Shown: piece by piece, positions 1,026 through 59,145 of the stretch
Position numbering within the stretch: position 1 is the first letter of the stretch
How the letters are laid out: each line of letters begins with the position of its first letter
Assembly (NCBI GenBank): GCA_021463645.1
Contig: JAJTYI010000005.1
Span: 680-64,679 of the forward strand
Direction of reading: 5' to 3'
From: a bacterium
GTDB taxonomy: Bacteria; Patescibacteriota; Dojkabacteria; B142; OLB20
Length of the DNA stretch: 64,000 nucleotides
Translations under genes and position numbers: made by a program
The notes under the pieces: model-generated
Told to the model about the DNA's origin: nothing
Seen by the model: the letters and a program-made list of their open reading frames with translations, nothing else
Databases searched by the model: none

Positions 1026-1099
1026 GGGCCAGTAGCTCAGGTGGTTAGAGCACCGTTCTTATAAAGCGGGGGTCGATGGTTCGAGTCCATCCTGGCCCA
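1026..1099 (+). tRNA. tRNA-Ile, anticodon UAU (reads AUA)
   Basis: Hand-folded 74-nt cloverleaf. Acceptor stem GGGCCAG/CTGGCCC, D arm GCTC-AGGTGGTTA-GAGC, anticodon stem CCGTT/AGCGG, loop C-T-TAT-A-A, 5-nt variable loop, T arm GATGG-TTCGAGT-CCATC, discriminator A. No encoded CCA. The body resembles bacterial tRNA-Ile. Confidence 0.8.
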
Positions 1100-2295: not shown

Positions 2296-4794
2296 TTAGG
2301 TCTTTGGCTTGAGTGGTGTATTCATAGCTCCGCCTCCTAACCCAGGCATACCCATTCCACCAATTCCAGTCTTTGGAGCAGGAGCCTCATCATCCATTCT
2401 TGCTCTTTCGCGCATTTCAGCTTCTACTAATGCTCTATCGCGACCGTAGCGATATCTAGATAGATTTTTCACAATATCACCAGTACGTTTATCACCGTCT
2501 TTTGGAATATCAAAAGTTGCGTATTTATAATTTGTGTTAATCGAAAATGCAGGTGGGGATTCTCCTTGGTAGATAATCTTCACGTAAGCATTAACATTCT
2601 CAAGGTTAACCAAATCATTAGCGTCAAAAACTGGCATGAATACGCTTTCCAAAAATTGAGCATCTTGATTACCAACTTTGAAACTGATGACACTACCAAC
2701 ATTACCAAAAACAGCATCACGAATCTTCTCATCAATCTGTGTGATGTACTGATTAGCGACAATTAAGTTTAATCTATACTTTCGAGCCTCGGATAGAATC
2801 TGAGCAAAGTCTTCAGTGGAGAAGTTTTGGAACTCGTCTACATATAGATAAAAGTCTTTTCGATCATCTTGACGCATGTCGGCTCTGCTCATAGCTGCCG
2901 ATAAAATTCTAGGCACTAAAAGTAAACCTAAGAATTGAGCATTTTCTTCTCCTATCAGACCTTTTGATAAGTTGACAATCAACACTTTTTGATTATCCAT
3001 CACCCAACGCATGTTAAAGCCCGACTTTGCTTGACCGAAAATATTTCGAGCTAATTTATTTGTTACAAACCTATCAAACTTAGAAACGATATAGCCCAAG
3101 ACCTCTGACTTATGGAATTCTTGAGTATTAGCAATTTCATCAGTCCAGTATCTCTTTACTAATTCGTCTTTAATATTTGGAATCTTCTTATTCGCATAAT
3201 TTTGGTCACTCAAGATTCTCAATACTTCAACTAAAGTAGTTCCCTCCTCTTCCATCACGGTAAGCATTGCGTTTCGAACTGCTCTTTCGAATCTAGGTCC
3301 TGTAATACCTTGATTGTGAGGGTCGAACATTTTCTGCATCATTCCCAAGATAGCATTCACAACTCTATGTTTATCCTGTTCATCGTAATATTCGATAATA
3401 TTGAAACCGAGAGGTCTTTCGGTATCACTTGGATCCCAATAAATCACATCCTCTATCCTGTGAGGAGGAATTCTCTCAAGTAACCACTCAGCACTATCTC
3501 CGTGAGGATCTAGGAACGCTATTCCCTCACCATTGATAATGTCCTGAAGTGCCATTTGTTGCAACATATAGGATTTTCCAGAGCCAGTTTTACCGACCAT
3601 ATACATATGTCTACGTCTATCCTCCCTCATCATGAATATTGGTTTATTCACATCTCTGTAGAAGTTGTTCCCCAGCCACAAATCTCCCGTTGATGGGATA
3701 CCAGCGGTAGCAGGGGCTCTCTTGGATAAAAGCCAATTAATATGTGGAGTATTTATCATCTTGTTTGGGAAATGCATAATTGTAGCCAATTCTGCTGTAT
3801 TCAATATGGATGTTTCCCTTGGGATTCTATAGATAAAGTCTTCTATAAATTTGTTCTTCATATTCTTCTTCACCGACACTTTTACAAATTCGTTACTACC
3901 CTCTTTTTTAAATTGAGAAAATGAACTTGTCATAGTATTCAATGTTTGAGAGGCTTCTCCCATAGTTCGGGCTACACTTACCAATCTCAAATCTACGTAA
4001 AATCCTCCTTTTTCGCATTTTTTCTCAATAGATGCGAGCATATCTTCTGGTGCATCAATTTTCTTCTTTTCTGGATCTGAGTTATTATGACGAACTTTTG
4101 CGACAAACTTTTTACCTGCTTCTCTCCATCCACTCCCTGCACTTGTTATTACTACTTGGAAAGCAGCGGCTTCACCTAATCTCAACTTGCTCATTGTAGT
4201 CAAAATTGATGATAAGGAATCAGTACTGAGCTCTTCGTATGTACGAATAGGTTTATAACTATCCTTATTGAGTTTTAAGACTGCAAAGTCTACCTTCGAA
4301 CCATCATTAAAAATATTATATTCATCTACCTTGATTACTTCGGCCGTAGGATAGGCACCGTTAATAGCTTTCTCAACAGTATTAGACACACTTTTGCTTG
4401 TTACTACATAAAATCGAATAGTTTCAGGCAATCCTACAACTTCAAAGCTAACAAAGTTATTTGCTCCCACGAATTTTTGCTTGCCCTTTAACTTTTCTCC
4501 AATATTTAACAACCCTGAGAACATTTGATCCGCAGCCTGTATCTCCACTTCATTTGTTTTCGGAAGTCTAACTTCGAAGATTTCGGCATCTAGGGATTTT
4601 TTCTCAATAGAGGCTTCCTTGATACGACTCAAGAATTTAAGGACGAGATGTCTTCCTAAGAAAATCGCTCCAATTAATGCAACAATAGACAATATGAGAA
4701 TAATCCAAAATGTAGGCTCTGCAATGAAGCCAAACATACTACCTCCAGAAGGACTTGGAGCGTTTATTACGGGTCTCGACTGAATTAAAATCAT
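2296..4794 (-). CDS. Membrane-anchored FtsK/HerA-superfamily ATPase, type IV coupling protein-like (VirD4/TraD/TraG family)
   Basis: 832 aa. N-terminal TM helix (FWIILILSIVALIGAIFLG). Walker A VGKTGSGKS, then FLDPHGD. Walker B FYLYVDEFQNF. A Gly/Met-rich tail. Confidence 0.6.
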   Translation of the reverse strand: MILIQSRPVINAPSPSGGSMFGFIAEPTFWIILILSIVALIGAIFLGRHLVLKFLSRIKEASIEKKSLDAEIFEVRLPKTNEVEIQAADQMFSGLLNIGEKLKGKQKFVGANNFVSFEVVGLPETIRFYVVTSKSVSNTVEKAINGAYPTAEVIKVDEYNIFNDGSKVDFAVLKLNKDSYKPIRTYEELSTDSLSSILTTMSKLRLGEAAAFQVVITSAGSGWREAGKKFVAKVRHNNSDPEKKKIDAPEDMLASIEKKCEKGGFYVDLRLVSVARTMGEASQTLNTMTSSFSQFKKEGSNEFVKVSVKKNMKNKFIEDFIYRIPRETSILNTAELATIMHFPNKMINTPHINWLLSKRAPATAGIPSTGDLWLGNNFYRDVNKPIFMMREDRRRHMYMVGKTGSGKSYMLQQMALQDIINGEGIAFLDPHGDSAEWLLERIPPHRIEDVIYWDPSDTERPLGFNIIEYYDEQDKHRVVNAILGMMQKMFDPHNQGITGPRFERAVRNAMLTVMEEEGTTLVEVLRILSDQNYANKKIPNIKDELVKRYWTDEIANTQEFHKSEVLGYIVSKFDRFVTNKLARNIFGQAKSGFNMRWVMDNQKVLIVNLSKGLIGEENAQFLGLLLVPRILSAAMSRADMRQDDRKDFYLYVDEFQNFSTEDFAQILSEARKYRLNLIVANQYITQIDEKIRDAVFGNVGSVISFKVGNQDAQFLESVFMPVFDANDLVNLENVNAYVKIIYQGESPPAFSINTNYKYATFDIPKDGDKRTGDIVKNLSRYRYGRDRALVEAEMRERARMDDEAPAPKTGIGGMGMPGLGGGAMNTPLKPKT

Positions 4795-21398: not shown

Positions 21399-22709
21399 AT
21401 GAGAAGCCTAATATTGATACCCTTTTTATTGCTGATTCTTGGAATAACTCCAATCTTGTTCATCCAAAAAATATCGACACAAGCTCAAACTGTTTCACCT
21501 CCAAATTATAAGCTGGAAGTTACTTCAGAGAATAGTAGTCAAATCCCACCAGAAGTCGTCAACTCAATCTTAGATACAATTACTAACCGTTGGCAGGGTG
21601 ATACTCCCTTAAACAATATATTTTTTGTCCCGAGCATTCGTTGGGAAAATGATTGGGCTATTGCGGACATTCATTACAAGAAAAGTAGTGTCGACTATAC
21701 TAATCCAGAGAACTCTCCAATCAATAATTCCGTTTCGATGATTCTGGCAATAAACTCAAGAGGTGCTTGGCAATCTGCATTTACCGACGAACCACAGGCA
21801 GCTGACATTGCAAGGTTAATTCCTGATGAAGAGTTGTCCTACGAGGCCAAAACCACTCTTCTTACCCATTTCCCCAGTCAGTACAAAACGATGGCTTTAA
21901 ATATTGATTATAAATTACCGTGGTCGAAATCTGGAACAAAGTTTTTCTTCTCGGGAGTCAGAACTACAAACACTCAACCATGTCCAAATAACTCAGGCTG
22001 GCATGGAGCACTGCCATATTTAGGTGGCGAGCCTTGTCATGCACTTGATTTCGCCCCAAGGCTCAGTTCTACAGTGACGAATGCAGACATTCTTTCTCCC
22101 GTTACAGGTTATGTTTATCAAATCTGCAAAAACCCAGGCTCACAAAAACAATCAGCCCTTGCAATCAAAGCTACAAATAGTAACCAAATTATAGGAATCT
22201 GGCATCTTGATAAAGATACAATTCCCTCACGAATCAAACAGGGTGAACTAATTAAACAAGGAGAATTTCTCGGTCAGATGGTCGAAGGATCTGTGAACGA
22301 ATCAAAATCAACATGTCCCCTAGTCTCCCAGGGAACTCATATTCATATTGTATCCCCATATAGACCCTTTACTATTGATTCTTATACTTTTACCCTTGAA
22401 GACAAAGTAATATTTAACGAGTCTGAACATACTATGAGTGCCTTCCAAAACACAAATATGGTAAGTACTAATGAAAATGATTCAAATAACCCTACAACTT
22501 GCAGACCACCTATATCTGGAGACTGGGTGATTTTAGAGAATTGTGATTTGTCATCCTCTGCCTCCGTTCCCAATAATCTAATAATTAACGAGGGAAAATC
22601 GCTAACAATAAATAGCAATGTTACACTTGATATGGATTTAGGATATTATAAAATTCTTATAAAACCCAACGCTAAATTACTAGTTAACTCCAATGCTAAA
22701 ATCATTTAA
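21399..22709 (+). CDS. Secreted protein with an M23 (LytM)-like peptidase core and a C-terminal beta-helix-like tail
   Basis: 436 aa with a signal peptide. CHALDFAP...ILSPVTGYV...IWHLDKD...IKQGEFLGQ...GTHIHI follows the order of M23 motifs (H-x-x-D, HxH). The first motif's spacing is atypical. Confidence 0.45.
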   Translation: MRSLILIPFLLLILGITPILFIQKISTQAQTVSPPNYKLEVTSENSSQIPPEVVNSILDTITNRWQGDTPLNNIFFVPSIRWENDWAIADIHYKKSSVDYTNPENSPINNSVSMILAINSRGAWQSAFTDEPQAADIARLIPDEELSYEAKTTLLTHFPSQYKTMALNIDYKLPWSKSGTKFFFSGVRTTNTQPCPNNSGWHGALPYLGGEPCHALDFAPRLSSTVTNADILSPVTGYVYQICKNPGSQKQSALAIKATNSNQIIGIWHLDKDTIPSRIKQGELIKQGEFLGQMVEGSVNESKSTCPLVSQGTHIHIVSPYRPFTIDSYTFTLEDKVIFNESEHTMSAFQNTNMVSTNENDSNNPTTCRPPISGDWVILENCDLSSSASVPNNLIINEGKSLTINSNVTLDMDLGYYKILIKPNAKLLVNSNAKII

Positions 22710-23316
22710 CAAAAAACCTATGAAAAGATTCATCATAATAATTTTTGCGACAATCCTCCTTGTATATGCTGGAATGAATGCTCAAGAATTAATTCAAAAA
22801 GAAAAAACCACTTCACAAGAGGATGTTGTTACGATTACCCCATCACCAACTATTAAAATTCCCACAATCTCAAACACATTCGTTCTTTCAGAAAACACAG
22901 ATTCATCGCAGACCACTCTAACACTAGAAAGTATTGGAAAATATAATGATGAAATTATTAAATCGGAAAAGACATCTTCTCAGTGGAAGTTATCTCAAAA
23001 TGACACATTGCTTCAAATTTCAATAAATCCTAGTGACACATCACCCTTTGGGGCTGACTTAGAACCTGACATAACATTATTAAATTCCCGACTCACGGCT
23101 AATCAAATCTATAGAGTCAAAGTCGATGAGAACTTCTACTTTTACACAAATAGATACTACAACGACTCATGTGGACAGCGATATTGTTCTAATGGTCTTT
23201 TGAGCACCGATAGTGGCGAAGACCTGTCAATATATTGTGTGCTTGGGGAAAGTAGTCCGGACGAACTCAGCTTCTGTGACAATATCGTAGTAAATCTAAA
23301 CGATAAAAGTATTTAA
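22693..23316 (+). CDS. Hypothetical N-terminally anchored or secreted protein
   Basis: 207 aa. N-terminal hydrophobic segment FIIIIFATILLVYAG and C-terminal cysteines. No recognisable domain. Confidence 0.35.
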   Translation: MLKSFNKKPMKRFIIIIFATILLVYAGMNAQELIQKEKTTSQEDVVTITPSPTIKIPTISNTFVLSENTDSSQTTLTLESIGKYNDEIIKSEKTSSQWKLSQNDTLLQISINPSDTSPFGADLEPDITLLNSRLTANQIYRVKVDENFYFYTNRYYNDSCGQRYCSNGLLSTDSGEDLSIYCVLGESSPDELSFCDNIVVNLNDKSI

Positions 23317-23771
23317 CCTGTGCATACATCTGGGAAGAAGAACGTAAACCCAGGGGTTCCGTCAAATTGTAGATAACAATTACTAGTACCAGAGATCATG
23401 GTCGCCATTACTGACGAGATTATCATTCTGGATAAGTAGAACAATACTATTCCAATCAACCACCTACCAAAGCGACTTTTCGCGTCTTCGATTTTATTTG
23501 TGTCACTCGTAAAGAACGAATAAGCGATAAGAATGAAATACGCCAACCATAAAAAACCACCCAATGCCCAAGCAATATATATGAATCTCACCAATACAAA
23601 TTCAAATGTTTGAAGTGTAGGTGGTCTGCAATCAGGATCTATACTATCTACGGGGCAATCATTTAAAAAATCAGTCTGGCCACCTTGTGCTTGAACAGTT
23701 ACGACCTGGGTGGATACAATCATAAATGTAATTGAGATAGTAATCAAAATTGATATTATTTTATTTTTCAT
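23313..23771 (-). CDS. VirB2/TrbC-like two-helix pilin-family protein (divergent member 1 of 9)
   Basis: 152 aa. Signal peptide ending VQAQ, a short Cys-containing N-terminal region, then helix - SDTNKIEDAKSRF loop - helix. Confidence 0.5.
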   Translation of the reverse strand: MKNKIISILITISITFMIVSTQVVTVQAQGGQTDFLNDCPVDSIDPDCRPPTLQTFEFVLVRFIYIAWALGGFLWLAYFILIAYSFFTSDTNKIEDAKSRFGRWLIGIVLFYLSRMIISSVMATMISGTSNCYLQFDGTPGFTFFFPDVCTG

Positions 23772-23933
23772 GACTCACAAACTTAATATATTCTATAGTA
23801 GCGCAGAACAAATATTTAATCTAGTTAAGGGATACGAATAAATAATTCTTGTTATTGTTTAAGTCTATATGAGGCTATAACCTTTATAGGCACTAATTGA
23901 ACACCTAATCATGTACTACTCTATTTAACACAT

Positions 23934-23960
23934 AAAAAAGGCTACTTTTGTAGCCTTTTC
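23934..23960 (-). terminator. Rho-independent terminator (bidirectional hairpin) after pilin paralogue P1
   Basis: aaaaaaGGCTAC-tttt-GTAGCCtttt. On the minus strand the stem is followed by a T-run. It lies 27 nt downstream of the stop at 23987. Confidence 0.65.
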
Positions 23961-23986
23961 ATTGTCAATCATGCTTTTGCTATTAA

Positions 23987-24610
23987 TCAAGGTGCTGGTG
24001 GTACTACACCTCCATCTGGAGTTCCTAATGGAGTTCCTCCATTCAATGGATCTTTACAATCTCCAGGGATAGCAGTTTCTGGTTGTGTTCCTGCAGCATA
24101 AGCAGCATACCAAGCGTTACAAGCAGTACATTGCGAATTTTCTACATCTGCCTTACAAATTTCACAACCATTACTATTTGGGGCACTCAAACATACCTGA
24201 GTAAGTGTTGGGTCTACTCTTCCTGCTCCAAAGAAAACGAATACTAGAACTACACCTACTATTCCTATCAACATTGCTGCTATTCCCATAAATATCGCCT
24301 TGATTGCTTTCTGTGCTTCTTCAATTTTACCAGGGTCACCTTGTGATTGGATATATTTAAATGCTGCAATCAACGCATAAACTACTGCTACAAGAATTAT
24401 TAATCCAAGTGCTATGTACAATCCTGTACGAACTCGACCTGAGATGAATGATGCTGTTCCTGAGCCATCCTCTCCGAAAAGGTTAAAAATTTCATTAATT
24501 TGTTCTGGAAGTAAATTCGAAGTTTGTGCAGAAACTGCTGTTGGTAGGATTAACACAATCCCCAACATTATAAATATACTAATGACGAACCTTAATGACA
24601 ATTTATACAT
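23987..24610 (-). CDS. VirB2/TrbC-like pilin-family protein, tandem paralogue P1 (six-Cys C-terminal tail)
   Basis: 207 aa. Signal peptide (…AVSAQ). An 82-aa core identical to P2 (ASFISGRVRTGLYIALG…SQGDPGKIEEAQKAIKA…FFGAGRVDP). A variable Cys/Pro-rich tail. Confidence 0.65.
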   Translation of the reverse strand: MYKLSLRFVISIFIMLGIVLILPTAVSAQTSNLLPEQINEIFNLFGEDGSGTASFISGRVRTGLYIALGLIILVAVVYALIAAFKYIQSQGDPGKIEEAQKAIKAIFMGIAAMLIGIVGVVLVFVFFGAGRVDPTLTQVCLSAPNSNGCEICKADVENSQCTACNAWYAAYAAGTQPETAIPGDCKDPLNGGTPLGTPDGGVVPPAP

Positions 24611-24716
24611 ACATGTAAAGTAATAATTATAAAAATTTGTAAGTTGTTAAATACTGATTAAAACTTTAAATATCTGCAATCAACTAATTTCATATCAAGA
24701 CCTTTATTCAATTATT

Positions 24717-25346
24717 TTAAGGTATATCTGTTGGTATAACCGGGTTCGGGGTAGTTCCCAACGGAGCACCTTCATTAAGCGGATCCTTACAATAATTTAG
24801 AGTATCGTCAATTACGTTTGCACTATCTCTAGCATAATCAGCGTATGCATCTTCACATGATAAACAAATAGCACTGCTTGTGTCTTCCTTACAAGCTTCA
24901 CAACCCACACTGTTTGGAGCACTTAAACACACTTGGGTAAGATTTGGATCAACTCTTCCTGCACCAAAAAATACGAATACCAATACAACCCCTACTATTC
25001 CTATTAACATCGCTGCTATTCCCATAAAAATCGCCTTGATTGCTTTCTGTGCTTCTTCAATTTTACCGGGGTCTCCTTGTGATTGAATATATTTAAATGC
25101 AGCTATCAAAGCATAGACTACTGCAACAAGTATTATTAATCCTAGTGCTATATAAAGGCCAGTTCGTACTCTACCTGAGATAAAAGAGGCTGCACCAGAA
25201 CCATCTCGACCAAACAAATCAAATATCGCTTGAATCTGTTCTGGTATGAGACTTGAATTTTGTGCACTCACACCACTAGGCAATAGTAATAATACTGTCA
25301 ACACTCCCATAAAACTAATTGTTAAATGGCTAAATTGATTTTTCAT
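24717..25346 (-). CDS. VirB2/TrbC-like pilin-family protein, tandem paralogue P2
   Basis: 209 aa. Same architecture as P1. Shares with P3 a 79-nt identical DNA stretch covering the SAPNSVGCEACKEDTSSAICLSCED segment. Confidence 0.65.
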   Translation of the reverse strand: MKNQFSHLTISFMGVLTVLLLLPSGVSAQNSSLIPEQIQAIFDLFGRDGSGAASFISGRVRTGLYIALGLIILVAVVYALIAAFKYIQSQGDPGKIEEAQKAIKAIFMGIAAMLIGIVGVVLVFVFFGAGRVDPNLTQVCLSAPNSVGCEACKEDTSSAICLSCEDAYADYARDSANVIDDTLNYCKDPLNEGAPLGTTPNPVIPTDIP

Positions 25347-25451
25347 AATTAATTATTAAATAAATAATTTAGGTTATTAATTTTTACTATTAGTAAGTTA
25401 TAGGTAGGCAATACAAAGTTTATTATTTTCAAATACTTTTTTATTAATCTA

Positions 25452-26096
25452 TTAATCAGGATCTGGAACATTTGCAGGTACTGTGCCTAACGGATCTCCT
25501 CCATCTAGAGGATCTTTGCAGAACTTATAGTTAGTATCCAAATCAGCAATTTGTGCGGCAGCATTTGCAGCAGCTGCAGCAGCCACGTCAGCATAGATAT
25601 CTTCACATGATAAACAAATAGCACTGCTTGTGTCTTCCTTACAAGCTTCACAACCCACACTGTTTGGAGCACTTAAACATACCTGAGTAAGATTTGGGTC
25701 AACTCTTCCTGCACCAAAAAATACGAATACCAGGACTACGCCGACTATTCCTATTAACATCGCTGCTATTCCCATAAAAATCGCTTTGATTGCTTTTTGT
25801 GCTTCTTCAATTTTACCGGGGTCTCCTTGTGATTGTATATATTTAAATGCGGCAATTAATGCGTAAATGACAGCTACCAGTATTATCATACCAAGAGCGA
25901 TGTACAAACCAGTACGAACTCGACCAGAGATAAATGATGCAGTTCCTGTTCCGTCTCTACCGAATAAGTCAAATATTGATTTAATCTGATCTGGTAGTAG
26001 TCCAGAATTTTGTGCTTCAACACTTAGAGGTGTTATGAACATTAATAACAAGAATGAGAAGACAACACCCAAACCGATAGTTAGTAAATTACGCAT
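25452..26096 (-). CDS. VirB2/TrbC-like pilin-family protein, tandem paralogue P3
   Basis: 214 aa. Same core as P1 and P2. The tail has an Ala-rich insert (ADVAAAAAANAAAQIADL). Confidence 0.65.
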   Translation of the reverse strand: MRNLLTIGLGVVFSFLLLMFITPLSVEAQNSGLLPDQIKSIFDLFGRDGTGTASFISGRVRTGLYIALGMIILVAVIYALIAAFKYIQSQGDPGKIEEAQKAIKAIFMGIAAMLIGIVGVVLVFVFFGAGRVDPNLTQVCLSAPNSVGCEACKEDTSSAICLSCEDIYADVAAAAAANAAAQIADLDTNYKFCKDPLDGGDPLGTVPANVPDPD

Positions 26097-26124
26097 TTCT
26101 GATATTAATTAATAAATAAATATT

Positions 26125-26694
26125 TTATTGACATAAATTGTTAAATTGAATTTGCTCTCCAGGATCAAGTGTTCCACCTCTTGCGACTTCTGCAAATAGA
26201 CCTTCACAAGTTCTGCAATCTCCACCATTGATACCCTCTGCTCTACAGCTATCACAACCGACACTATTTGGTGCACTTAAACAAGTTTGATAAAGATTTG
26301 GTTCAACTGGACTAGTTCCAAAAAATACGAACACAAGAATAACTCCTACAATGGCGATCATCATAGCTGCGATACCCATAAATATTGCCTTGATGGCTTT
26401 TTGGGCTTCTTCGATTTTTCCTGGGTCACCTTGTGATTGGATATATTTGAAAGATGCTAGTAAAGCATAAATTACCGCAACTACAATAATCACACCCAAA
26501 GCTATGAACAACCCTACCCTCACTCTACTGACAATAAAAGAAGCAGTACCAGACCCATCTGGTCCTAAGAGATTGAACAGACTTAAAATTTGATCTGGTA
26601 AAAAGGAGGGATTAGTCTGAGCACTTACTCCGACCGAGAGTAGTACTAATATAATTGGAGTCAGTAAAAGACTTGATAATACTTGTTTTTTCAT
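26125..26694 (-). CDS. VirB2/TrbC-like pilin-family protein, tandem paralogue P4 (most divergent of the four)
   Basis: 189 aa. The core is conserved (…SQGDPGKIEEAQKAIKAIFMGIAAMMIAIVG…). The six-Cys tail has different spacing and ends NNLCQ. Confidence 0.65.
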   Translation of the reverse strand: MKKQVLSSLLLTPIILVLLSVGVSAQTNPSFLPDQILSLFNLLGPDGSGTASFIVSRVRVGLFIALGVIIVVAVIYALLASFKYIQSQGDPGKIEEAQKAIKAIFMGIAAMMIAIVGVILVFVFFGTSPVEPNLYQTCLSAPNSVGCDSCRAEGINGGDCRTCEGLFAEVARGGTLDPGEQIQFNNLCQ

Positions 26695-26762
26695 AATTTA
26701 TTTATTAAAGATAACAAATTTTAAACTAATTTTATTTAAATAGCAAAACAATTACAGCAACA

Positions 26763-27500
26763 TTATTCACATCGAAAACTGTTGGGATTGTTATTAACAC
26801 TACCAGTACAAGTTAGTCCTGCACAGCATGACCCAACTGGATTCCCATTAATATTACATAACTGACCACTCGATAAGCATACATTTGAGACGTTACTGTT
26901 CCCGTGTGTGCTGTTCAGTGCACATTCACTTGGTATAGCACTTTGAAATTCAATGATATCGATATACTCCGTATCGCCATCTTCACAACAGACTACATAA
27001 TATTGAGGTCTGGTTGATCCTGCAGACTCAAGGTAATCGTCTAGAAGTTCTATATAAGATTTTCTAATCACTTTCGTAGGATCATTGGGATCGGGTTCAA
27101 ACTTGCCTTGGAAATAAAACCTTCCAGAGGCAGGACCACCTTGATTACATTGCCTTAAGTTCTCAGCCCAATTCCAAGGTGCACCAACTCCCATAAATAC
27201 AGCAGCAAAAGTAATCACTAGGAAAAACAACAGGAAATACGATATTCCGATCCATACACTTTTAATAGTTTTCCAGCCTTTTTCAATCTTCTGTGGATCT
27301 CCAAAACTTGATGTAATGCTAAATGCTCCATATATAGCAAATCCTAGCCATGCGACTACAAGAATTGCTAGGAAAAGGAACATTAGGAAACCGATAGCAG
27401 AAAAGATACCATTCGAGAAAAAACCTCCATAGGACGGTAGGTCAAAGACAAATTCAGTACCTGGAATGTAGAATTGATTTGATATTAAGCTAAAATTCAT
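26763..27500 (-). CDS. Pilin-family hairpin protein with a ~150-aa Cys-rich C-terminal ectodomain ending in a knottin-like motif
   Basis: The track ORF runs to 27656, which would overlap the upstream gene by 119 nt. The internal ATG at 27498-27500 (MNFSLISNQ…) is more plausible. The core is helix - SFGDPQKIEKGWKTIKS - helix. The C-terminus is CLSSGQLCNINGNPVGSCCAGLTCTGSVNNNPNSFRCE. Confidence 0.55.
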   Translation of the reverse strand: MNFSLISNQFYIPGTEFVFDLPSYGGFFSNGIFSAIGFLMFLFLAILVVAWLGFAIYGAFSITSSFGDPQKIEKGWKTIKSVWIGISYFLLFFLVITFAAVFMGVGAPWNWAENLRQCNQGGPASGRFYFQGKFEPDPNDPTKVIRKSYIELLDDYLESAGSTRPQYYVVCCEDGDTEYIDIIEFQSAIPSECALNSTHGNSNVSNVCLSSGQLCNINGNPVGSCCAGLTCTGSVNNNPNSFRCE

Positions 27501-27537
27501 TTGGTTAAACTTATTATTAATTATATTACAAGCTTTT

Positions 27538-28257
27538 TCACATACATTTCTTGAAACCGGCCACAGGATCAAGTACGCAGGAATCTTGTGGGTCAGCACA
27601 AACCGTATATCCTCCACAATTTCCACCTCTTGGAACAACCCTAGGCTGAGGTACAATACTTATATCAAATAAACTTCCCGTCAGTCCTAAAAGTAATGAG
27701 ACAAGTTGGATAATACCTATGAATGAGAGACTCAATATCACACCTACAACTGCATTTCTAAAAATTTTAACAGCCTTTTCGATTTTTTCTGGATTATCCG
27801 CGGCTGTTGATCTTTCCCAGACACCCCATAGTCCCATAATTACGGTGGCAAATATGATCAAACTTATCATTGCGTAGAATCCCAGCCGCACCAAAATAAC
27901 TGTACAATACGGATCGTCAGCTGGTCTATCAATCGTCTCCGGATCTGGACAAAGCTCTAATCCAAAAATATTAAATGCCTCTCTATATCTCCCAGGAATA
28001 TCGTCATACATAATTTCAAAGGATAGATTATGACAGTTAACTTGATCTGACTCGAGACAGTTTAAACCCTGGTCTACACAAGCTTTATTACATAGCGAAC
28101 TACACACAATCGGATCATTTGGAGATCTTGTTGCGAGATATTTTGAACATTCCGGATCAATTACCAGTTCTACATTAGCCCCTTGCGCATTAACACTAAA
28201 GCCCTGAATAAAAGTAACGATTAAGATTCCAAATATTAAAAATAGTAGTTTCTTCAT
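27538..28257 (-). CDS. Pilin-family hairpin protein with Cys-rich N-terminal ectodomain and 4-Cys C-terminal tail
   Basis: 239 aa. Signal peptide (…SVNAQ). A Cys-rich region of about 110 aa. The core is helix - AADNPEKIEKAVKIFRN - helix. The tail is GGNCGGYTVCADPQDSCVLDPVAGFKKCM. Confidence 0.55.
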   Translation of the reverse strand: MKKLLFLIFGILIVTFIQGFSVNAQGANVELVIDPECSKYLATRSPNDPIVCSSLCNKACVDQGLNCLESDQVNCHNLSFEIMYDDIPGRYREAFNIFGLELCPDPETIDRPADDPYCTVILVRLGFYAMISLIIFATVIMGLWGVWERSTAADNPEKIEKAVKIFRNAVVGVILSLSFIGIIQLVSLLLGLTGSLFDISIVPQPRVVPRGGNCGGYTVCADPQDSCVLDPVAGFKKCM

Positions 28258-28613
28258 GAAGGATTGGTGATTAATAAATCAATGCCAAAAATTGCCCCGA
28301 TAGTCGCAATTATCAATGGTGCAAGCATAATTAATGCAAAACCAGTCGTGGAATAACCTATTATTAAAATAGCTTTTTTCGCTTTTTCCGGATCAGCACC
28401 AGCAGTCAGCCTCATATATCCAGCATACAAAAGCATAGCCAAATAAAGCAATACAGCTATAGGCCGTATCCAACGGGAAATTGTACTAATTGAGGTTTCC
28501 AAATCTTTAAAAGCTTCACTTACAGGATTTATAATCCCCACTGCGTGACTTTCACTAGGGAAAAGGATAAATAAGACCACTATTGAAATTAATACTAAAT
28601 ATGCTTTTTTCAT
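28254..28613 (-). CDS. Minimal VirB2/TrbC-like pilin (no Cys-rich domain)
   Basis: 119 aa. Signal peptide (…SESHA). The core is helix - AGADPEKAKKAILI - helix. It has the size and topology of canonical T-pilin/TrbC. Overlaps the next gene by 4 nt. Confidence 0.6.
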   Translation of the reverse strand: MKKAYLVLISIVVLFILFPSESHAVGIINPVSEAFKDLETSISTISRWIRPIAVLLYLAMLLYAGYMRLTAGADPEKAKKAILIIGYSTTGFALIMLAPLIIATIGAIFGIDLLITNPS

Positions 28614-28620
28614 TTTGATA

Positions 28621-29784
28621 TTAGCCTAAGAAATTAATTGGTAGTAATTGTAAAAGATTGATACCCAAGAATCTCAATAATGGGATGGTAACAGCTAATG
28701 TAATCAACGCCCAGATAGATGAAGTTATCATGTCTTTTCCTTCTTGGATTTTAGCTGGATCGGTACTCTGTCTCAGAATCGATCCCCACATAATCCTCAA
28801 TACACCAAATCCACCTAACATTCCGAAACCTATTTGGAACAGTCTAGTGATGAATTCATTTTGCCTTGTATCTACACACCCAATAGAGCTATAAACGAAT
28901 GCTTTAGGTGCGTTTGGATTATTTGGGTCGATGTTCTTCATGAAGCACTCCAGACAATTTTGTCGCTCTGCTAAATCATCTATCTCTTGACATGAACTTA
29001 TATCTGGGTTGATACTGACAAGAGTTAATACTACGGGATCCACTGCTTGTTGGTATGAACAGAATAGGTCCTTCAAATCTTCACCATCTGGACCATAGAC
29101 TCCAACCATGCTTGCCCCCTGAGGTAGACAAATATAGTCAAGTGTTTGAGATTGTGTCAATGGATAACTATTTGTATTATTGTCCTCTAATAAGGTCTTC
29201 CTCTGAAAAGTAGGATTGTCAACCAAACATGCATCAGATGGGCATGTAAATAGAGGTGCTCCGAGTTTATATGGAAAACTTGAGGCTGTTGCAGTAACAT
29301 CAGTAAAAGGTGTAGACATTACAGGGTTAACACTACTATTATTATCTAAAATACATTTCCCTCCCTCATCAGATACAGTATTTCCAGGACAGCAAGTTGT
29401 CCTATTTTGATATCCTAACAAACCGATTTCTCCTATTGCACAACAACCACCCCCAGAATATTCTCCTTCAAACTTCAAATAAGGAATTGCCTTACCACCT
29501 GGACAGTATCGAACATATCGTTCATTTGCCCAACCAACTGGATCATCTATTTTTTGTATATGTAATGATCTGTCTGTCGTACATATCTTGAAGCTTTCTG
29601 CCTCTATCATCGAAGCAGTCACACTCCCACTATCCGAGTTTTTTATCATATCCCTAGTGATTTTATACTCGCCAGTCGCATTATTACAATAGTCAGACTC
29701 AACCCACGCTTGCTGTGCTCTTACTCCCTGAGGAAATACCGCAATTAACAGAAACACCCCTATGATTAATCCTAAGATTTTCAT
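28621..29784 (-). CDS. Large Cys-rich ectodomain protein with a C-terminal pilin-family hairpin
   Basis: 387 aa. Signal peptide (…GVRAQ). An ectodomain of about 300 aa with 16 Cys by my count (includes GGGCCAIGE and TTCCPG). The C-terminal core is helix - QSTDPAKIQEGKDMITS - helix. Confidence 0.55.
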   Translation of the reverse strand: MKILGLIIGVFLLIAVFPQGVRAQQAWVESDYCNNATGEYKITRDMIKNSDSGSVTASMIEAESFKICTTDRSLHIQKIDDPVGWANERYVRYCPGGKAIPYLKFEGEYSGGGCCAIGEIGLLGYQNRTTCCPGNTVSDEGGKCILDNNSSVNPVMSTPFTDVTATASSFPYKLGAPLFTCPSDACLVDNPTFQRKTLLEDNNTNSYPLTQSQTLDYICLPQGASMVGVYGPDGEDLKDLFCSYQQAVDPVVLTLVSINPDISSCQEIDDLAERQNCLECFMKNIDPNNPNAPKAFVYSSIGCVDTRQNEFITRLFQIGFGMLGGFGVLRIMWGSILRQSTDPAKIQEGKDMITSSIWALITLAVTIPLLRFLGINLLQLLPINFLG

Positions 29785-29787
29785 AAT

Positions 29788-32364
29788 TTATTTAATTGTA
29801 TATTTATTTAAACTTTCTATGAATATTGTGCTCCCGCTTTGAATTTTCCTCTCTATAATTAATTGAGCAACTAGGTCTTCAATCGTGTCTGTCACTACCC
29901 TTCTTAATTCTCTCGCTGCGTATAAATTATTGTATCCTAAATTTGCCAACTCTTGTAGCAAGTTCCTACTATATTCAAGTTTGATACCTTTATCAAATAA
30001 CCTATCTGCAACCGACTTCATCATTAAATTGGCTATTTCTTCTACCTCCATTCTAAGCAAAGGCTTGAACATAATCAACTTATCAAATCTATTGAGGAAC
30101 TCAATCCTCAAGAAATTTCTTAAAGTTGGCATAATTGCTTCCAGAACTTCACTGTAACGACGACCTTGTGAAATTAAATCTGCAATTTCTTTCGATGCGA
30201 CATTGGAAGTTGCAATAATTATCGTATTGGTGAAAATTACCTCTCTTCCCATCCCATCGGTGATTTTTCCCTCGTCCAAAATTTGCAAGAACAAGTCAAG
30301 AACACGCGGATTTGCTTTTTCAATTTCATCAAGCAGAATTAATGCGTATGGTTTTGCTTTTACAGCTTCCGTCAAATATCCTCCAACAAATTCCTCACCT
30401 TCTTGCATTCCAATCAATCTTCCTAGATTTCTATCCTCTTGATATTCTGACATATCGAGCCTTATCATTTTATCTTCATCACCAAAGTATAGCTCAGCGA
30501 CTGTTTTTGCCAACTCGGTTTTACCAACTCCAGTTGGTCCGAAAAATAGAAAACTCGCCACAGGTCTATTTTTATTGGTAAGACCAGCTCTGGATCTTCG
30601 AAGTGCGGCTGCCACAGCGTCTACTGCTTGATGTTGACCGATAACTCTTTTATGAAGTTCAATTTCAAGTTTATTGAGAAAATCTGATTCTTTCATACTG
30701 ATACTTCCGATTTCTACACCAACTTTTCCTGCTACTAATTTATCCACAACCTCTCTGTCAACGATAGTTTTACCTCCTGCAAGTGCACGAGAAATTGCTT
30801 CTTCTAATAAATTAATTGCTTTGTCAGGTAACACCCTCTCAAAAGCGAATTTATGTGATAACTCGACAGAACGATCTGCAGCTTCAAAAGCAATTTTGAC
30901 TTTGTATGTTTTTTCAAGTTCAGGAATGAAGTCAAATAGTATTTGAAGTGCAATTTCATCAGTAGGCACCTCCATTTTCATTTTATTAAACAACGCGTCA
31001 AGAGCTTTGTATGGTTTTATGTGTCTCGTATACCCTTCAACAGAACTAGTGGCTATGATTCTGAGTTTATGGACATCCATTGCATCAGTCAAAAGATTTA
31101 TAATCTCTGCACTCAACTCTTTCTTCACATTGACCAACTCATCTAAATCATCAATCACAAGAATAATATTTTTAGCTTTTGCCACTTCTTGGACTATATT
31201 TTCGACCGTGGCTTTAAATTGTTGTTCGTTCTCAGCCAATGCGTATGCCCTATTGAAATCAAAACCAACTAAGCGCATATCTTGAATTATTTTGGGGACG
31301 TCCTCTACCACCATTTTGATCGCGAAGTTTTTGATAAATGTGGTTTTACCAACACCCGGTTGCCCCAGAACTAAAGATGCACTTGATTCTCCTGAAGTTA
31401 CCATTGCGATTAAGTTCTTTAGTTCATTTTCTCTTGCGTAAGATAATTCGAAATTACCCTGGACAATTTCCGCGGTGAAATCACGTGAAAATTTAACCAA
31501 ACTTGGGGAGAACACTGAAGTGTATGCACGATTAACCGTTGAAGTTGGTTTAAGCATACTTTTTGTTCTGATGATTTGGAGATACCTGGCTCTCTTACTG
31601 AGGTTCTGCGCCCATAGTCTCATTGCATCAACTTCATTCTCTCCTACTTCAAGTTTCAGTAGTTCGTTTTTAAGGTCGGTTTTGCAAAGATGGATAAATA
31701 GAGACAACTCGTCTGCCTTCTTGAATCCATTCTCTATTGCAATAATAAAACTCTCTCGCAAAACCAATGCTAATTTCTCTTCATCAAAATTGACATTATT
31801 AACCGTATGAATCAGATTATTTAACGTCTCAACACTCAACCCTAATCGAGTACTAGCTGTTTTGACAAGTTCGAGATAACTTAGCTCCTCTAGAATTTTC
31901 TCTAATATGTTACTTCCATCTTTCCTTGCAAGGACTTCATCAATTAAATTTATTAAATCTTTATCAAAATAGTCAGTTATATCAATCTCTGATGGATTCT
32001 CGGCCTTATCAAACTTAATGCGTAATCCATCTAAATCTCTTTGACCAAACTTGTCTAGAAAGATATTTCTATCTCTAACTAAATAAGCACCATACGAAAT
32101 CAGACCGAGTCCAAAATATAGAACTAATTTCGCAAAGGTGTCTACATAAATAATTTCGGACAAAATAAATCTAGAATTGAAATAAGCTTCGTACAAAGCG
32201 AAAAGACAAATTATCACAACTGTGAATGAAATTAATGCCCATCCAACTATGAACTCAATCTTTTGGAGTTCTTTTCTTAATCCAAACTCTTTCGATAGAT
32301 AACCAAAGTTAATTTTTAATTTTGTTTTTCTATACTCACCAAGTGAGTTGATACTTTTAAGCAT
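29788..32364 (-). CDS. Membrane-anchored Clp/Hsp100-family double-AAA+ ATPase (ClpB/ClpC-like, no obvious ClpP-docking loop)
   Basis: 858 aa. Two N-terminal TM helices (IVGWALISFTVVIICLFALY, LVLYFGLGLISYGAYLV). D1 has LGQPGVGKTT and IILVIDDLDE. D2 has VIGQHQAV…FFGPTGVGKTELAK, LILLDEIEKA and ARELRRVV. Ends 3 nt before the first pilin-family gene. Confidence 0.75.
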   Translation of the reverse strand: MLKSINSLGEYRKTKLKINFGYLSKEFGLRKELQKIEFIVGWALISFTVVIICLFALYEAYFNSRFILSEIIYVDTFAKLVLYFGLGLISYGAYLVRDRNIFLDKFGQRDLDGLRIKFDKAENPSEIDITDYFDKDLINLIDEVLARKDGSNILEKILEELSYLELVKTASTRLGLSVETLNNLIHTVNNVNFDEEKLALVLRESFIIAIENGFKKADELSLFIHLCKTDLKNELLKLEVGENEVDAMRLWAQNLSKRARYLQIIRTKSMLKPTSTVNRAYTSVFSPSLVKFSRDFTAEIVQGNFELSYARENELKNLIAMVTSGESSASLVLGQPGVGKTTFIKNFAIKMVVEDVPKIIQDMRLVGFDFNRAYALAENEQQFKATVENIVQEVAKAKNIILVIDDLDELVNVKKELSAEIINLLTDAMDVHKLRIIATSSVEGYTRHIKPYKALDALFNKMKMEVPTDEIALQILFDFIPELEKTYKVKIAFEAADRSVELSHKFAFERVLPDKAINLLEEAISRALAGGKTIVDREVVDKLVAGKVGVEIGSISMKESDFLNKLEIELHKRVIGQHQAVDAVAAALRRSRAGLTNKNRPVASFLFFGPTGVGKTELAKTVAELYFGDEDKMIRLDMSEYQEDRNLGRLIGMQEGEEFVGGYLTEAVKAKPYALILLDEIEKANPRVLDLFLQILDEGKITDGMGREVIFTNTIIIATSNVASKEIADLISQGRRYSEVLEAIMPTLRNFLRIEFLNRFDKLIMFKPLLRMEVEEIANLMMKSVADRLFDKGIKLEYSRNLLQELANLGYNNLYAARELRRVVTDTIEDLVAQLIIERKIQSGSTIFIESLNKYTIK

Positions 32365-32692
32365 TCAATAAAAAAGATGCGAATCCGTAAATCGGAATCA
32401 CAGGTAAAATCAGATAAATTATGAAAATTATCAAAATGATCGGAAGAAGAAGTAATTCAATAAATAACCCTATCAAAACCCATGTCAAACGTATAGGAAA
32501 AGCAATAATACGACCCATCCTGGTGTAGTCCTGATAAAGTGGCTGAAATAGATTTTTAAGCATCGGTGGGACATTCAACAAATTCATCAAGAACATCCAT
32601 CCACCAAAAACTTTACCCAAGACAATCTTGGATTGAACAAGGTACCACCAAATAAAATAATTTAGAAAATATCGATTTATTAAATTGAGCAT
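32357..32692 (-). CDS. Small polytopic membrane protein
   Basis: 111 aa with 2-3 hydrophobic helices. Overlaps the Clp-like gene by 8 nt. Confidence 0.4.
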   Translation of the reverse strand: MLNLINRYFLNYFIWWYLVQSKIVLGKVFGGWMFLMNLLNVPPMLKNLFQPLYQDYTRMGRIIAFPIRLTWVLIGLFIELLLLPIILIIFIIYLILPVIPIYGFASFLLNA

Positions 32693-32767
32693 TTTTAGAG
32701 TTATTTCTCTAATTGTAGTTGAATTTGGTTACTCTATCAATGAAAAATCTAAACTACTATTTACACC

Positions 32768-32796
32768 AAAAAAGATCCCGCACTAAATGCGGGATC
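32768..32796 (-). terminator. Rho-independent terminator downstream of groEL
   Basis: Minus strand: GATCCCGCA-tttag-TGCGGGATC (9-bp stem) followed by TTTTTT. It lies 27 nt after the groEL stop. Confidence 0.8.
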
Positions 32797-32822
32797 TAAC
32801 ATTCTTAGTTCGTTGGATATAA

Positions 32823-34803: not shown

Positions 34804-34830
34804 TTAGCACTCTCGGACTTTGTGTGATAA
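34804..34830. promoter_or_regulatory. CIRCE-like inverted repeat (putative HrcA operator) in the groES leader
   Basis: TTAGCACTC-N9-GTGTGATAA against the consensus TTAGCACTC-N9-GAGTGCTAA. The left arm matches 9/9 and the right arm 7/9. Confidence 0.6.
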
Positions 34831-36774: not shown

Positions 36775-38030
36775 TATTTTTTATCTAATTCAAAATACAT
36801 TCTAGCAAGTGCAAGAGGCGCTATGTCCTCAGGACCAGTTATACTTCGAGATACATCATTAATATCTTCAAGTTGCTTAGGATACAAATACTCAATCTTT
36901 GGATGTTTAGCAAAAGGTAGTGTTTGTAACCATGCATATTCTTGAAGGGATTCTTTGATTTCAGGTAAACCCGAGCCTCCTCCGCAAAGATAAAATACGG
37001 TAGGATAATTATCGATATCTTCGATTTCTGAAAGTGATAACTCAACACCTTGTGCCCAAACTAAGCAATCCTTAGTTAACATTTCTCGTATTGCTCTTGC
37101 TTGTGTTTCATTTACTGCACCGTTACTATAATCAATTTTGATTTTTTCAGCGTCTTCGATTTGAACTTTTAATTTGTTTGAAATTCTCTTTGTGAAAACC
37201 TTCCCTCCGTAAGCAAACATTTTGGTAGCGATGACACTCCCTCGGTCAACCACAGCAATATCGGTTGTACCTCCACCAATATCTATAATTACAGCTGAGA
37301 ATTTCTCGTTTTTTGCGTCTTTGACTGCTCTAGCTACAGCATATGGCTCAACTTCGATTGATAAGATTTCCAATCCAAGTTGAGATGCAATTTCCTTGAG
37401 GGAATTTAAGTGCAAAGAAGGAGCAAAAGTTGAGAATACTCGATAACTGATGTTCTCGCCTGTCATACCTAGTGGACGATCAACTTGAACACCATCTATG
37501 TATGTAGCATTAATTTTTGTGTTAATTTCTTGAAGTCTTTTGGTCTCAATTCCAGTTTCCTCAGAGATATCATTGATCGCTTGATTAAATGAGTATTCCT
37601 TTATACTGGTAATTACTTCGTCAATTTCTTTTTGTTCAATTTTTACGTCAGGCTCTTCTCTCGAATAATCAGCGATAATAGTCACACCTTTTACAAGTTC
37701 TCCAGCAATACCTAAAAGGGCTTTTTCAGGTGCGGGAGTAACGTACTCAACACCTAATTCCTTGCTCATGATTTCATCGGCATGATTTAGTGCCTCTCCG
37801 ATGGCTTTGTCACAAGCGTTTACAACGTGTTCGATATTAATGACCATAGCGCCTTTCATGGCAGATCCATGCTGTCTACTACGGCCATAGCCAAGAACTT
37901 TTATAGAGGTATCACCTTCTTCAACTGTGAAGATAACAGCTTTTACGAATTCAGTACCGACGTCAAGCGCCAAAAGCACTTCGTTATCTGTTTTATTTGT
38001 TTTGTTGAGAAATGGCAGCTTCATTTTCAT
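36774..38030 (-). CDS. ftsA: Actin-like ATPase, FtsA-like cell-division protein
   Basis: 418 aa. LALDVGTEFVKAVIF (phosphate 1), MKGAMVINIEHV, VIIDIGGGTTDIAV (phosphate 2), and LCGGGSGLPEI (adenosine motif). Confidence 0.6.
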   Translation of the reverse strand: MKMKLPFLNKTNKTDNEVLLALDVGTEFVKAVIFTVEEGDTSIKVLGYGRSRQHGSAMKGAMVINIEHVVNACDKAIGEALNHADEIMSKELGVEYVTPAPEKALLGIAGELVKGVTIIADYSREEPDVKIEQKEIDEVITSIKEYSFNQAINDISEETGIETKRLQEINTKINATYIDGVQVDRPLGMTGENISYRVFSTFAPSLHLNSLKEIASQLGLEILSIEVEPYAVARAVKDAKNEKFSAVIIDIGGGTTDIAVVDRGSVIATKMFAYGGKVFTKRISNKLKVQIEDAEKIKIDYSNGAVNETQARAIREMLTKDCLVWAQGVELSLSEIEDIDNYPTVFYLCGGGSGLPEIKESLQEYAWLQTLPFAKHPKIEYLYPKQLEDINDVSRSITGPEDIAPLALARMYFELDKK

Positions 38031-59109: not shown

Positions 59110-59145
59110 AATTAATAATGAACTTCAATCATCTAAATACAATAA

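Follow-up and report, generated by a model that had tools for sequence, protein, structure and literature searches.

Patescibacteria depend on host cells, and tandem arrays of genes for VirB2-like pilins have been described in them as parts of type IV secretion systems (T4SSs). Quinonero-Coronel et al. (2025) searched 3,035 Patescibacteria genomes with the Pfam profiles PF04956 and PF18895 and found VirB2-like pilins in 1,948 VirB4-positive assemblies, near virB4 in 1,135; in about 40% of the pilin-bearing assemblies the pilin lay away from virB4, and 441 VirB2 arrays of 2 to 11 genes were recorded in 383 assemblies (PMC12102498). In Southlakia a homologous pilin array lies inside a VirB4-type cluster, and Wang et al. 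(2023) found the pilin series of this T4SS cluster to be essential (PMC10633639), a result repeated in a 2025 review (PMC12857230). In this system, the only one tested genetically, epibiotic growth requires the T4SS and its pilin array (PMC10633639). In this study, we analyzed a stretch of 64,000 nucleotides (nt) from a bacterium of the class Dojkabacteria (contig JAJTYI010000005.1; hereafter the window), in which nine genes for hairpin-shaped, pilin-like membrane proteins follow directly behind the genes for a small membrane protein and a membrane-anchored Clp/Hsp100-type ATPase.

Both halves of this arrangement have counterparts among characterized machines. In solved VirB2/TraA pili both termini of the subunit face outward, and fused domains can be accommodated. 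Some Hsp100 proteins are dedicated to secretion machines, such as ClpV, which recycles the sheath of the type VI secretion system (T6SS), and Hsp101 of the PTEX translocon. FtsH and Msp1/ATAD1 are AAA+ rings held at the membrane by N-terminal transmembrane (TM) helices, and they engage cytoplasm-exposed segments of membrane proteins.

Results

Eleven tightly packed, consecutive minus-strand genes fill positions 23313-32692 in the open reading frame (ORF) list of the window. They encode a 111-amino-acid (aa) membrane protein, an 858-aa Clp/Hsp100-like double AAA+ protein and nine proteins with a hairpin module (Table 1). A preliminary description of this DNA, made from the sequence alone, had delimited the same eleven genes, and all of its ORFs were confirmed, with lengths and spacings as described. 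Its claim that nine genes share one module and loop is borne out by our alignment, which shows a helix, a DPxKIE-type loop and a second helix, and each of the six loop strings it quoted was found verbatim. It had also reported a signal peptide in eight of the nine proteins and none in the member encoded at 26763-27500. We reached the same outcome by eye: eight proteins start with a hydrophobic stretch ending in V/S-x-A-Q or H-A, and the 245-aa protein does not. The same start of the 245-aa gene is called in four related loci (L001-L004; loci are numbered throughout). The fused Cys-rich extracellular domains that it noted were judged real as well. Such domains or tails, of about 70-290 aa, occur in seven of the nine proteins, and the 152-aa member has short Cys-containing extensions only. 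The proteins do not fit type IV pili (T4P): the leaders are of Sec type (AxA or AQ, by eye) and not of the class III prepilin type (G/FxxxE). The only T4P-like Pfam match nearby is a PilM_2/FtsA-like gene at 36774-38030, with no match to PilB, PilC or PilD.

The nine genes encode homologues of PF18895-type (VirB2/TrbC-type T4SS) pilins in an ordered array. PF18895 (T4SS_pilin, "Type IV secretion system pilin") is the top Pfam match in seven of the nine proteins. For the bare 119-aa protein the score is 39.1 bits (cut-off 26.6; E value 8e-10), and TrbC (PF04956) is matched as well, at E 0.0066. Seven further proteins match PF18895 below the cut-off, at E 0.002-0.08, and it ranks first in six of these seven; in the 189-aa protein Serinc and PIG-F outscore it. 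The 214-aa protein, alone among the nine, has no PF18895 match at E <= 0.1. In the 387-aa protein PF18895 is the sole Pfam match (E 0.0046, residues 310-364). Because single-sequence scores are weak for short hydrophobic modules, we built group profiles from positional orthologues in related loci and compared them by hhalign with the group of the 119-aa bare pilin. The 239-aa group matched it at 97.4% (E 1e-11), the 245-aa group at 96.5% (E 7.5e-10), the four-copy paralogue group at 96.2% (E 2.2e-9) and the 152-aa group at 90.7% (E 1.3e-6), and the matches to the 119-aa group span the hairpin in every case. A hidden Markov model (HMM) from the 119-aa orthologues alone hardly parts the other eight members from background. 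Orthologues in relatives match PF18895 or TrbC, and the one in L135 matches PF04956. The 387-aa protein has positional orthologues in L005, L006 and L007, and that of the 152-aa protein in L005 (157 aa) has a precomputed PF18895 match. The HMM search that the preliminary description had proposed for its VirB2/TrbC-type module has thus been run and upholds the assignment: the family is PF18895, the 119-aa protein lies above the cut-off and the profile-profile comparisons add support.

The AlphaFold2 (AF2) model of the 119-aa protein (pLDDT 74.7) has a leader helix at residues 2-17 and hairpin helices at 33-70 and 75-108. In a Foldseek search of the PDB it matched the Aeropyrum pernix conjugation pilus (8dfu) with a probability of 0.87 and E 2.1, a TM-score of 0.73 on the target and a root-mean-square deviation of 2.5. 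This result speaks neither for nor against pilin identity, because helical hairpins are poorly discriminated.

One other explanation of the hairpin proteins is that they are holins or other generic two-TM membrane proteins whose likeness to pilins is compositional. Weak Pfam matches to Phage_holin_3_6 (E 0.02-0.1), DUF1418, PIG-F and Serinc in some members point that way. PF18895 outranks those matches in seven of the nine proteins (not in the 189-aa and 214-aa proteins) and exceeds its cut-off in one, and the profile-profile E values run from 1e-11 to 1e-6. The signal peptides and extracellular Cys-rich domains also speak against holins, as does the lack of a phage context, the neighbors being groESL, a polyprenyl synthase and similar genes. 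The Pfam and profile-profile results largely refute this reading, which we regard as highly improbable.

The order of members is kept across relatives, from the 387-aa type through the 119-, 239- and 245-aa types to a variable number of paralogues and finally the 152-aa type, and no array lacks the bare 119-aa type. Relatives with Clp proteins of 33-69% identity have this gene set in the same order, so that the array is more than a chance assembly. In the four paralogues (189-214 aa) the hairpins are nearly identical as protein and 72-85% identical as DNA, which argues that purifying selection, and not recent gene conversion, holds the core. At the DNA level the leaders and Cys-rich C-terminal tails of these paralogues share 43-66% identity, the tails by themselves 46-66%. 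Judged from these comparisons, the predicted exposed parts of the paralogues diverge while the core is held, and the array appears to be old, with differentiated members of which only one type, the paralogues, expanded recently.

The size of the Cys-rich parts raises an alternative in which the hairpin is only a membrane anchor and the nine proteins are pilin-derived, tethered, disulfide-rich surface proteins, such as adhesins or receptors, that form no filament. Domains and tails of about 70-290 aa in seven members would be bulky for tight helical packing, seven members score below the PF18895 cut-off, and no assembly ATPase lies nearby. The outward termini of solved VirB2/TraA pili nevertheless leave room for fused domains, and every array includes a bare, canonical-pilin-like 119-aa member. 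The strong purifying selection on the hairpin fits subunit packing better than simple anchoring. We consider this alternative unlikely.

The link between the pilins and the Clp gene is conserved. A word-indexed search with residues 1-320 of the Clp protein gave just three matches and was too insensitive, so the full-length query was used instead. The arrangement of small membrane protein, Clp and pilin array, with PF18895 matches, is present at L005, L006, L007, L008, L010 and L135, where the Clp protein is 69%, 52%, 44%, 43%, 37% and 33% identical, respectively. The same arrangement was found at two further loci from the GTDB (L093 and L120). In the sample, every Dojkabacteria locus with enough downstream sequence, and no locus outside this class, has the pair joined to the pilins in one operon, which answers in the affirmative the preliminary description's question of whether the Clp-pilin neighborhood is conserved. 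The groES and groEL genes precede the unit in most Dojkabacteria loci; in L008 a gene for a type IV coupling protein (T4CP) and another gene are inserted between groESL and the unit, and the Clp-pilin part is intact. As a separate observation, an FtsA/PilM-like gene (418 aa) and a gene for a 622-aa protein without a Pfam family lie 5' of groES (34906-38030, minus strand), and this gene pair is syntenic with the groESL-Clp-pilin block in L001, L006, L007 and L008.

The 858-aa protein is an Hsp100 tethered at the cytoplasmic face of the membrane and partly degenerate. It consists of an N-terminal TM hairpin (about residues 30-63 and 77-95), a putative Clp_N-like domain (about 110-270), a degenerate D1 and an intact D2. 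Pfam finds AAA in two stretches, AAA_2 (5e-51), AAA_lid_9 and ClpB_D2-small (7e-17), and the protein matches ClpC and ClpB structures in the PDB at 1e-107 to 1e-105 (Staphylococcus aureus ClpC, 6em8, at 7.5e-107). It thus has the two AAA+ modules and the D2-small domain of a class I Hsp100, in agreement with the preliminary account of a membrane-anchored double AAA+ protein with an N-terminal TM hairpin. Its motifs were compared, residue by residue, with those of 18-42 family members and of S. aureus ClpC. In D1 the Walker A motif is intact, Walker B reads VIDD (hhhhD(D/N) in the family, in place of hhhhDE), and the pore loop is ENEQQFK or similar where ClpC has KYRGEFE. In D2 both Walker motifs are intact and the pore loop is shorter, GEEFVGG here and G-x-x-F/Y-x-G-G in the family against GYVG. 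The motif set of threading Hsp100s, a pore-loop Tyr in D1 and D2 and a Walker B Glu in both rings, is therefore incomplete. No M-domain was found, about 57 ClpC residues (404-460) having no counterpart. The ClpP-docking (I/V/L)GF loop is deleted, with a 7-residue gap against ClpC (HMMER) and an 11-column gap against the canonical relative P0119, and the protein therefore cannot feed ClpP. It probably has one working ring, to judge by these motifs, with an active-looking D2 and a D1 that binds ATP but hydrolyzes it poorly.

Among the Pfam families listed for the 858-aa protein and for its orthologues in Dojkabacteria, Clp_N does not appear. In the HMMER alignment, residues 240-270 correspond to the second N-repeat of ClpC, and an AF2 model of residues 1-320 (43 sequences, pLDDT 81.8) shows a short beta-hairpin, two long helices that form the TM hairpin, and a helical domain. 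The N-domains of Plasmodium Hsp101, ClpA and ClpC lead the Foldseek matches of the N-domain model, with probabilities of 0.97-1.00 and E values of 0.16-0.43.

The 111-aa protein matches no Pfam family and carries the conserved motif WWY...NLFxP(L/M)(Y/F)xDxxxxG..I.F..R. Its homologues lie directly 5' of the Clp gene in L005-L008, L010 and L012, and in at least 87 loci among the GTDB matches listed. In L012 it is a separate gene before a Clp with a zinc ribbon, a TM hairpin and a Pfam-detectable Clp_N. In L009 (10001-12511; Daviesbacteria, GCA_016176465.1) it is fused to the N terminus of the Clp protein, evidence that the two proteins cooperate physically. A single-sequence search of 1.84 billion proteins placed the family in 95 cluster representatives, nearly all of 100-150 aa.

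This pair of partner and Clp is Patescibacteria-wide. We scanned the GTDB, one genome per species, with a hand-built degenerate DNA pattern of the linker motif KPxxx[VIM][ND]RxxT...L...D.T, which occurs once in the window with no occurrence expected by chance. The scan found at least 120 loci; among the 120 matches listed, a Clp of this type is encoded in 113, most of which belong to ABY1-type lineages (Uhrbacteria, Falkowbacteria, Kerfeldbacteria and Komeilibacteria) and the others to further Patescibacteria. Of the listed loci, 74 have 700 nt or more of downstream sequence, and in these the neighboring gene 3' of Clp is a GT4 (WecA/MraY-family) gene in 35, GtrA in 1 and another gene in 36; it is pilin-like in just two, both of Dojkabacteria type. 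An iterated pilin HMM had no match in any non-Dojkabacteria locus among the matches listed, and none of 21 small multi-TM downstream ORFs (assessed by eye, ten of them also through Pfam) is pilin-like, VanZ, DUF5684 and ABC-membrane being among them. GT4 follows the partner-TM-Clp pair with gaps of a few bases in non-Dojkabacteria loci (for example L018, L067 and L100), and this second conserved operon form hints at a role in envelope biogenesis. Two oddities were seen among these loci. In L042 and L095 the GT4 directly 3' of Clp is fused to a C-terminal QueH (epoxyqueuosine reductase), an odd combination in proteins of 520-542 aa. A second Clp-like ORF (HMM scores about 660-730) lies beside or overlaps the TM-Clp in L031, L040, L072, L096, L097, L102 and L109; it could represent a canonical paralogue of Clp or an artefact of the reading frame.

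Within the window, the Clp-pilin genes form a unit of their own. The genes for the 111-aa and 858-aa proteins overlap by 8 nt (32357-32364), a 3-nt gap separates the 858-aa from the 387-aa gene and a 7-nt gap the 387-aa from the 119-aa gene, and the 119-aa and 239-aa genes overlap by 4 nt. Later gaps down the array are 37 (with the ATG at 27500), 68, 28, 105 and 106 nt, and a 215-nt gap precedes the last gene (152 aa). The preliminary description had placed a strong terminator at 23934-23960 before this last member, and we found the hairpin at 23960-23935; the groEL terminator at the upstream edge (32797-32773) is stronger. An inverted repeat like CIRCE (controlling inverted repeat of chaperone expression), TTAGCACTC-N9-GTGTGATAA, lies at 34804-34830, just 5' of groES and after a near-consensus promoter (34867-34838); it has 2 mismatches. 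None is expected by chance, and the 64-kb window has no other CIRCE-like site. Since a terminator follows groEL and the sole CIRCE-like site precedes groES, the eleven genes make up a unit apart from the heat-shock operon, and we rejected heat-shock co-regulation with groESL. From these sites, HrcA appears to regulate groESL but not the Clp-pilin unit. Two plus-strand genes (21399-23316), which encode secreted proteins of 436 and 207 aa without a Pfam family, run toward the last pilin gene; at its stop the 207-aa gene shares 4 nt with the end of the 152-aa gene, and homologues hold the same position in L005.

The Pfam scan for secretion machinery took every ORF of the window of at least 230 aa plus several shorter ones. 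It identified an 832-aa VirD4/TraG-like T4CP, encoded on the strand of the array at a distance of about 18.5 kb, with TraG-D_C at 23.4 bits (cut-off 22) and weak TrwB_AAD_bind, DUF87 and AAA_10 matches; from its sequence it is a possible T4SS component. The preliminary statement that canonical T4SS or T4P machinery is missing holds for VirB4 and VirB6 within 64 kb, and it fails for the VirD4-like gene at 2296-4794; because of this T4CP-like gene, "no canonical T4SS" is true just for VirB4 and VirB6, and just within 64 kb. A T4CP homologue lies directly 5' of the partner-Clp-pilin genes in L008 and 5' of the pair in L035 and L038. A general linkage of T4CP and Clp was rejected, as it occurs in 2 of the 58 listed GTDB loci with at least 2.5 kb upstream (L035 and L038), plus L008. 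Two Dojkabacteria rows of Table S1 of the published survey are marked VirB4 = Yes (PMC12102498), and its preprint version names Dojkabacteria among the T4SS-bearing groups.

The preliminary description had proposed a self-contained new filament or display system in which the Hsp100 and its partner extract the hairpins and drive assembly in place of VirB4/VirB11. In its favor, the partner-Clp-pilin operon is strictly conserved in Dojkabacteria with near-zero intergenic distances, it forms a transcription unit separate from groESL and without a CIRCE operator, and the 64-kb window has neither VirB4 nor VirB6. Being tethered, the ATPase sits at the membrane, to which the predicted pilin loops would be exposed, and ClpV in the T6SS and Hsp101 in PTEX are precedents. 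Against it, the pair is Patescibacteria-wide and has no adjoining pilins outside Dojkabacteria, and the claim that an Hsp100 replaces VirB4 is therefore not supported; elsewhere the pair adjoins WecA-like GT4, GtrA and unrelated genes. D1 has lost the pore-loop Tyr and the Walker B Glu, the D2 GYVG is altered, Dojkabacteria are reported to have VirB4, and the homologous array of Southlakia lies inside a VirB4-type cluster (PMC10633639). We regard an Hsp100 pilus motor as distinctly unlikely.

Table 1. Features of the Clp-pilin unit, its boundaries and the T4CP-like gene (window positions)
Feature	Position	Strand	Evidence
Upstream edge: groEL terminator (32797-32773), then promoter-like site (32740-32712) before the 111-aa gene	32712..32797	-	Consensus scan
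111-aa small polytopic membrane protein, partner of Clp	32357..32692	-	ORF, homologues beside Clp
858-aa membrane-anchored divergent Clp/Hsp100	29788..32364	-	Pfam, ClpC alignment, AF2, Foldseek
387-aa protein: signal peptide, ~290-aa Cys-rich extracellular domain, C-terminal pilin-like hairpin	28621..29784	-	PF18895
119-aa bare VirB2-like pilin, candidate major subunit	28254..28613	-	PF18895 above cut-off
239-aa pilin: N-terminal Cys-rich extracellular domain, short Cys-containing C-terminal tail	27538..28257	-	PF18895 E 0.0031
245-aa pilin-like protein without signal peptide, long Cys-rich C-terminal domain	26763..27500	-	PF18895 E 0.0019
189-aa pilin of the expanded paralogue group	26125..26694	-	PF18895 below cut-off, group hhalign
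214-aa pilin paralogue	25452..26096	-	Hairpin nearly identical to those of its paralogues
209-aa pilin paralogue	24717..25346	-	PF18895 E 0.02
207-aa pilin paralogue	23987..24610	-	PF18895 E 0.002
Intrinsic-terminator-like hairpin, 3' of the 207-aa gene	23935..23960	-	Consensus scan
152-aa pilin-like protein, last member, behind the terminator	23313..23771	-	PF18895 E 0.0021
832-aa VirD4/TraG-like T4CP	2296..4794	-	Pfam

Several other genes of the window deserve mention. A tyrosine recombinase/integrase gene (37-906, plus strand) is followed by the window's only tRNA gene, tRNA-Ile with anticodon TAT (1026-1099, plus strand). A 721-aa SMC/RecF-like AAA_27/AAA_15 protein (11179-13344, minus strand) has a weak Intein_splicing match near its C terminus (E 8e-4). 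A 429-aa AAA+ protein (39733-41022, minus strand) has a Lon lid and no Lon protease domain and is conserved in L001 and L002. Three consecutive large ORFs (57385-63904, minus strand; 574, 560 and 1003 aa) have no Pfam match at E <= 0.001 and are possibly surface proteins; an SH3-domain protein (56024-57391) follows them.

Discussion

The reading that we favor, and hold to be fairly probable, is that this locus joins a T4SS pilin array of a known type to a general membrane-proximal Hsp100 pair, the two being co-operonic in Dojkabacteria and the pair not being a dedicated pilus motor. The nine consecutive VirB2-like genes fall within the published definition of a Patescibacteria array (at least two genes in tandem or one gene apart). 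Since tandem VirB2-like arrays have already been published, this one belongs to a known class, and the preliminary view of an uncharacterized system does not stand, such arrays being published parts of Patescibacteria T4SSs (PMC12102498, PMC10633639 and PMC12857230). The Hsp100/partner module and its class-wide operonic link to pilins appear to be undescribed; literature searches for a membrane-anchored Clp/Hsp100 pair in Patescibacteria found no description.

Under this reading, two modules, a pilin array and an ATPase pair, would have become one operon in the class Dojkabacteria. The pilins would be exported by Sec and sit in the membrane as two-helix hairpins, with the charged DPxKIE loop in the cytoplasm and the Cys-rich N- and C-terminal domains outside the cell. 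Analogy with VirB2 and TraA pili makes the 119-aa protein the candidate main subunit, and the members with extra domains would decorate the surface as minor or alternative subunits, with the four-copy paralogue group keeping its hairpin and varying its exposed tails. Assembly would most likely be carried out by Patescibacteria machinery of the VirB4/VirB3/VirB6 type encoded elsewhere in the genome, and we infer that the pilins belong to such a VirB4-type T4SS. The Hsp100 pair would act close to the membrane, as an unfoldase or chaperone that serves membrane and envelope proteins in general, and we infer a general chaperone or extractase function for it; in Dojkabacteria, where it would be co-transcribed with the pilins, these may be abundant clients.

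Several observations weigh against the reading just given. On the pilin side, seven of the nine members fall under the PF18895 cut-off, with the 119-aa protein passing and the 214-aa protein having no match; the hhalign match of the 387-aa group to the 119-aa group is weak (51.8%, E 1.5e-4); and the Foldseek search of the PDB with the 119-aa model returned nothing at E <= 0.001, 8dfu standing at E 2.1. The scanned ORFs of the 64-kb window include no VirB4 or VirB6. On the side of the Hsp100, Clp-pilin adjacency holds in all eight Dojkabacteria loci of other species with enough downstream sequence, down to 33% Clp identity, and the spacing between Clp stop and pilin start, a 3-nt gap here, is a 4-nt overlap, 4-nt gaps or a 17-nt overlap elsewhere. 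This adjacency is stronger than expected for neighbors of unrelated function. In 39 of 42 sequences the D2 pore loop keeps an aromatic residue, and the Dojkabacteria Clp has lost the zinc ribbon and the Pfam-detectable Clp_N of its relatives; both could reflect specialization for a new client.

These points bear on a further possibility, that the Hsp100 and its partner were recruited in Dojkabacteria as a pilin-handling machine. From its place at the membrane, the D2 ring would take hold of the hairpins by their cytoplasmic DPxKIE loop, and the pilins would be dislocated to the T4SS or recycled and cleared. We view this as tentative and rather unlikely. If true, the Hsp100 would play a part comparable to that of VirB4 in pilin dislocation or of ClpV in recycling, and it would be the first Hsp100 linked to a pilus of the conjugative type. 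If the Clp-pilin link is only syntenic, the locus is an ordinary member of the published array class.

With the locus read as a known-type array beside a general Hsp100 pair, the fixed positional types of the members and the Cys-rich domains on most of them suggest a division of labor among subunits and not simple redundancy. The membrane-anchored Hsp100/partner pair is a candidate general factor for membrane-protein handling in the reduced cells of Patescibacteria, and its fusion with the pilins into one operon in a single class gives a testable hypothesis that links pilin biogenesis to an AAA+ unfoldase.

The 858-aa protein resembles ClpC, ClpB and ClpA in its two AAA+ modules, AAA_lid_9, D2-small domain, putative Clp_N-like domain and D2 Walker A and B motifs. 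It differs from them in having a TM hairpin and an obligate small membrane partner, in lacking the M-domain and the ClpP-docking loop, in the loss of KYR and the replacement of the Walker B Glu by Asp/Asn in D1, and in the shortened GYVG of D2. FtsH and Msp1/ATAD1 are functional analogues only, since the protein studied here belongs to the Hsp100 clade, has two rings and has no protease domain. ClpV and Hsp101 are Hsp100s that likewise lack the ClpP loop and were recruited to a secretion machine, and the Hsp101 N-domain is the top Foldseek match of the N-domain model; unlike them, the module described here also occurs without secretion genes nearby.

The bare 119-aa pilin shares a signal peptide, two hydrophobic helices, a short charged loop and small size with the VirB2/TrbC/TraA conjugative pilins (PF04956). 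In contrast to those, the host here is monoderm, the fold match to solved pilins is not significant, and there is no sign of cyclization or of VirB5, VirB7, VirB9 or VirB10 partners. The nearest likeness is to the published Patescibacteria arrays of "Ca. Southlakia epibionticum" ML1 and Nanosynbacter TM7x, which likewise consist of tandem, divergent PF18895/TrbC-type genes in monoderm cells and whose members, as here, are structurally alike and divergent in sequence. The Dojkabacteria array does not adjoin virB4, and one of its subgroups is 58-77% identical, whereas the published maximum is 54%. It is further set apart by the Cys-rich extracellular domains of most members and by its place behind a membrane-anchored Hsp100 pair, an arrangement that is fixed class-wide in Dojkabacteria.

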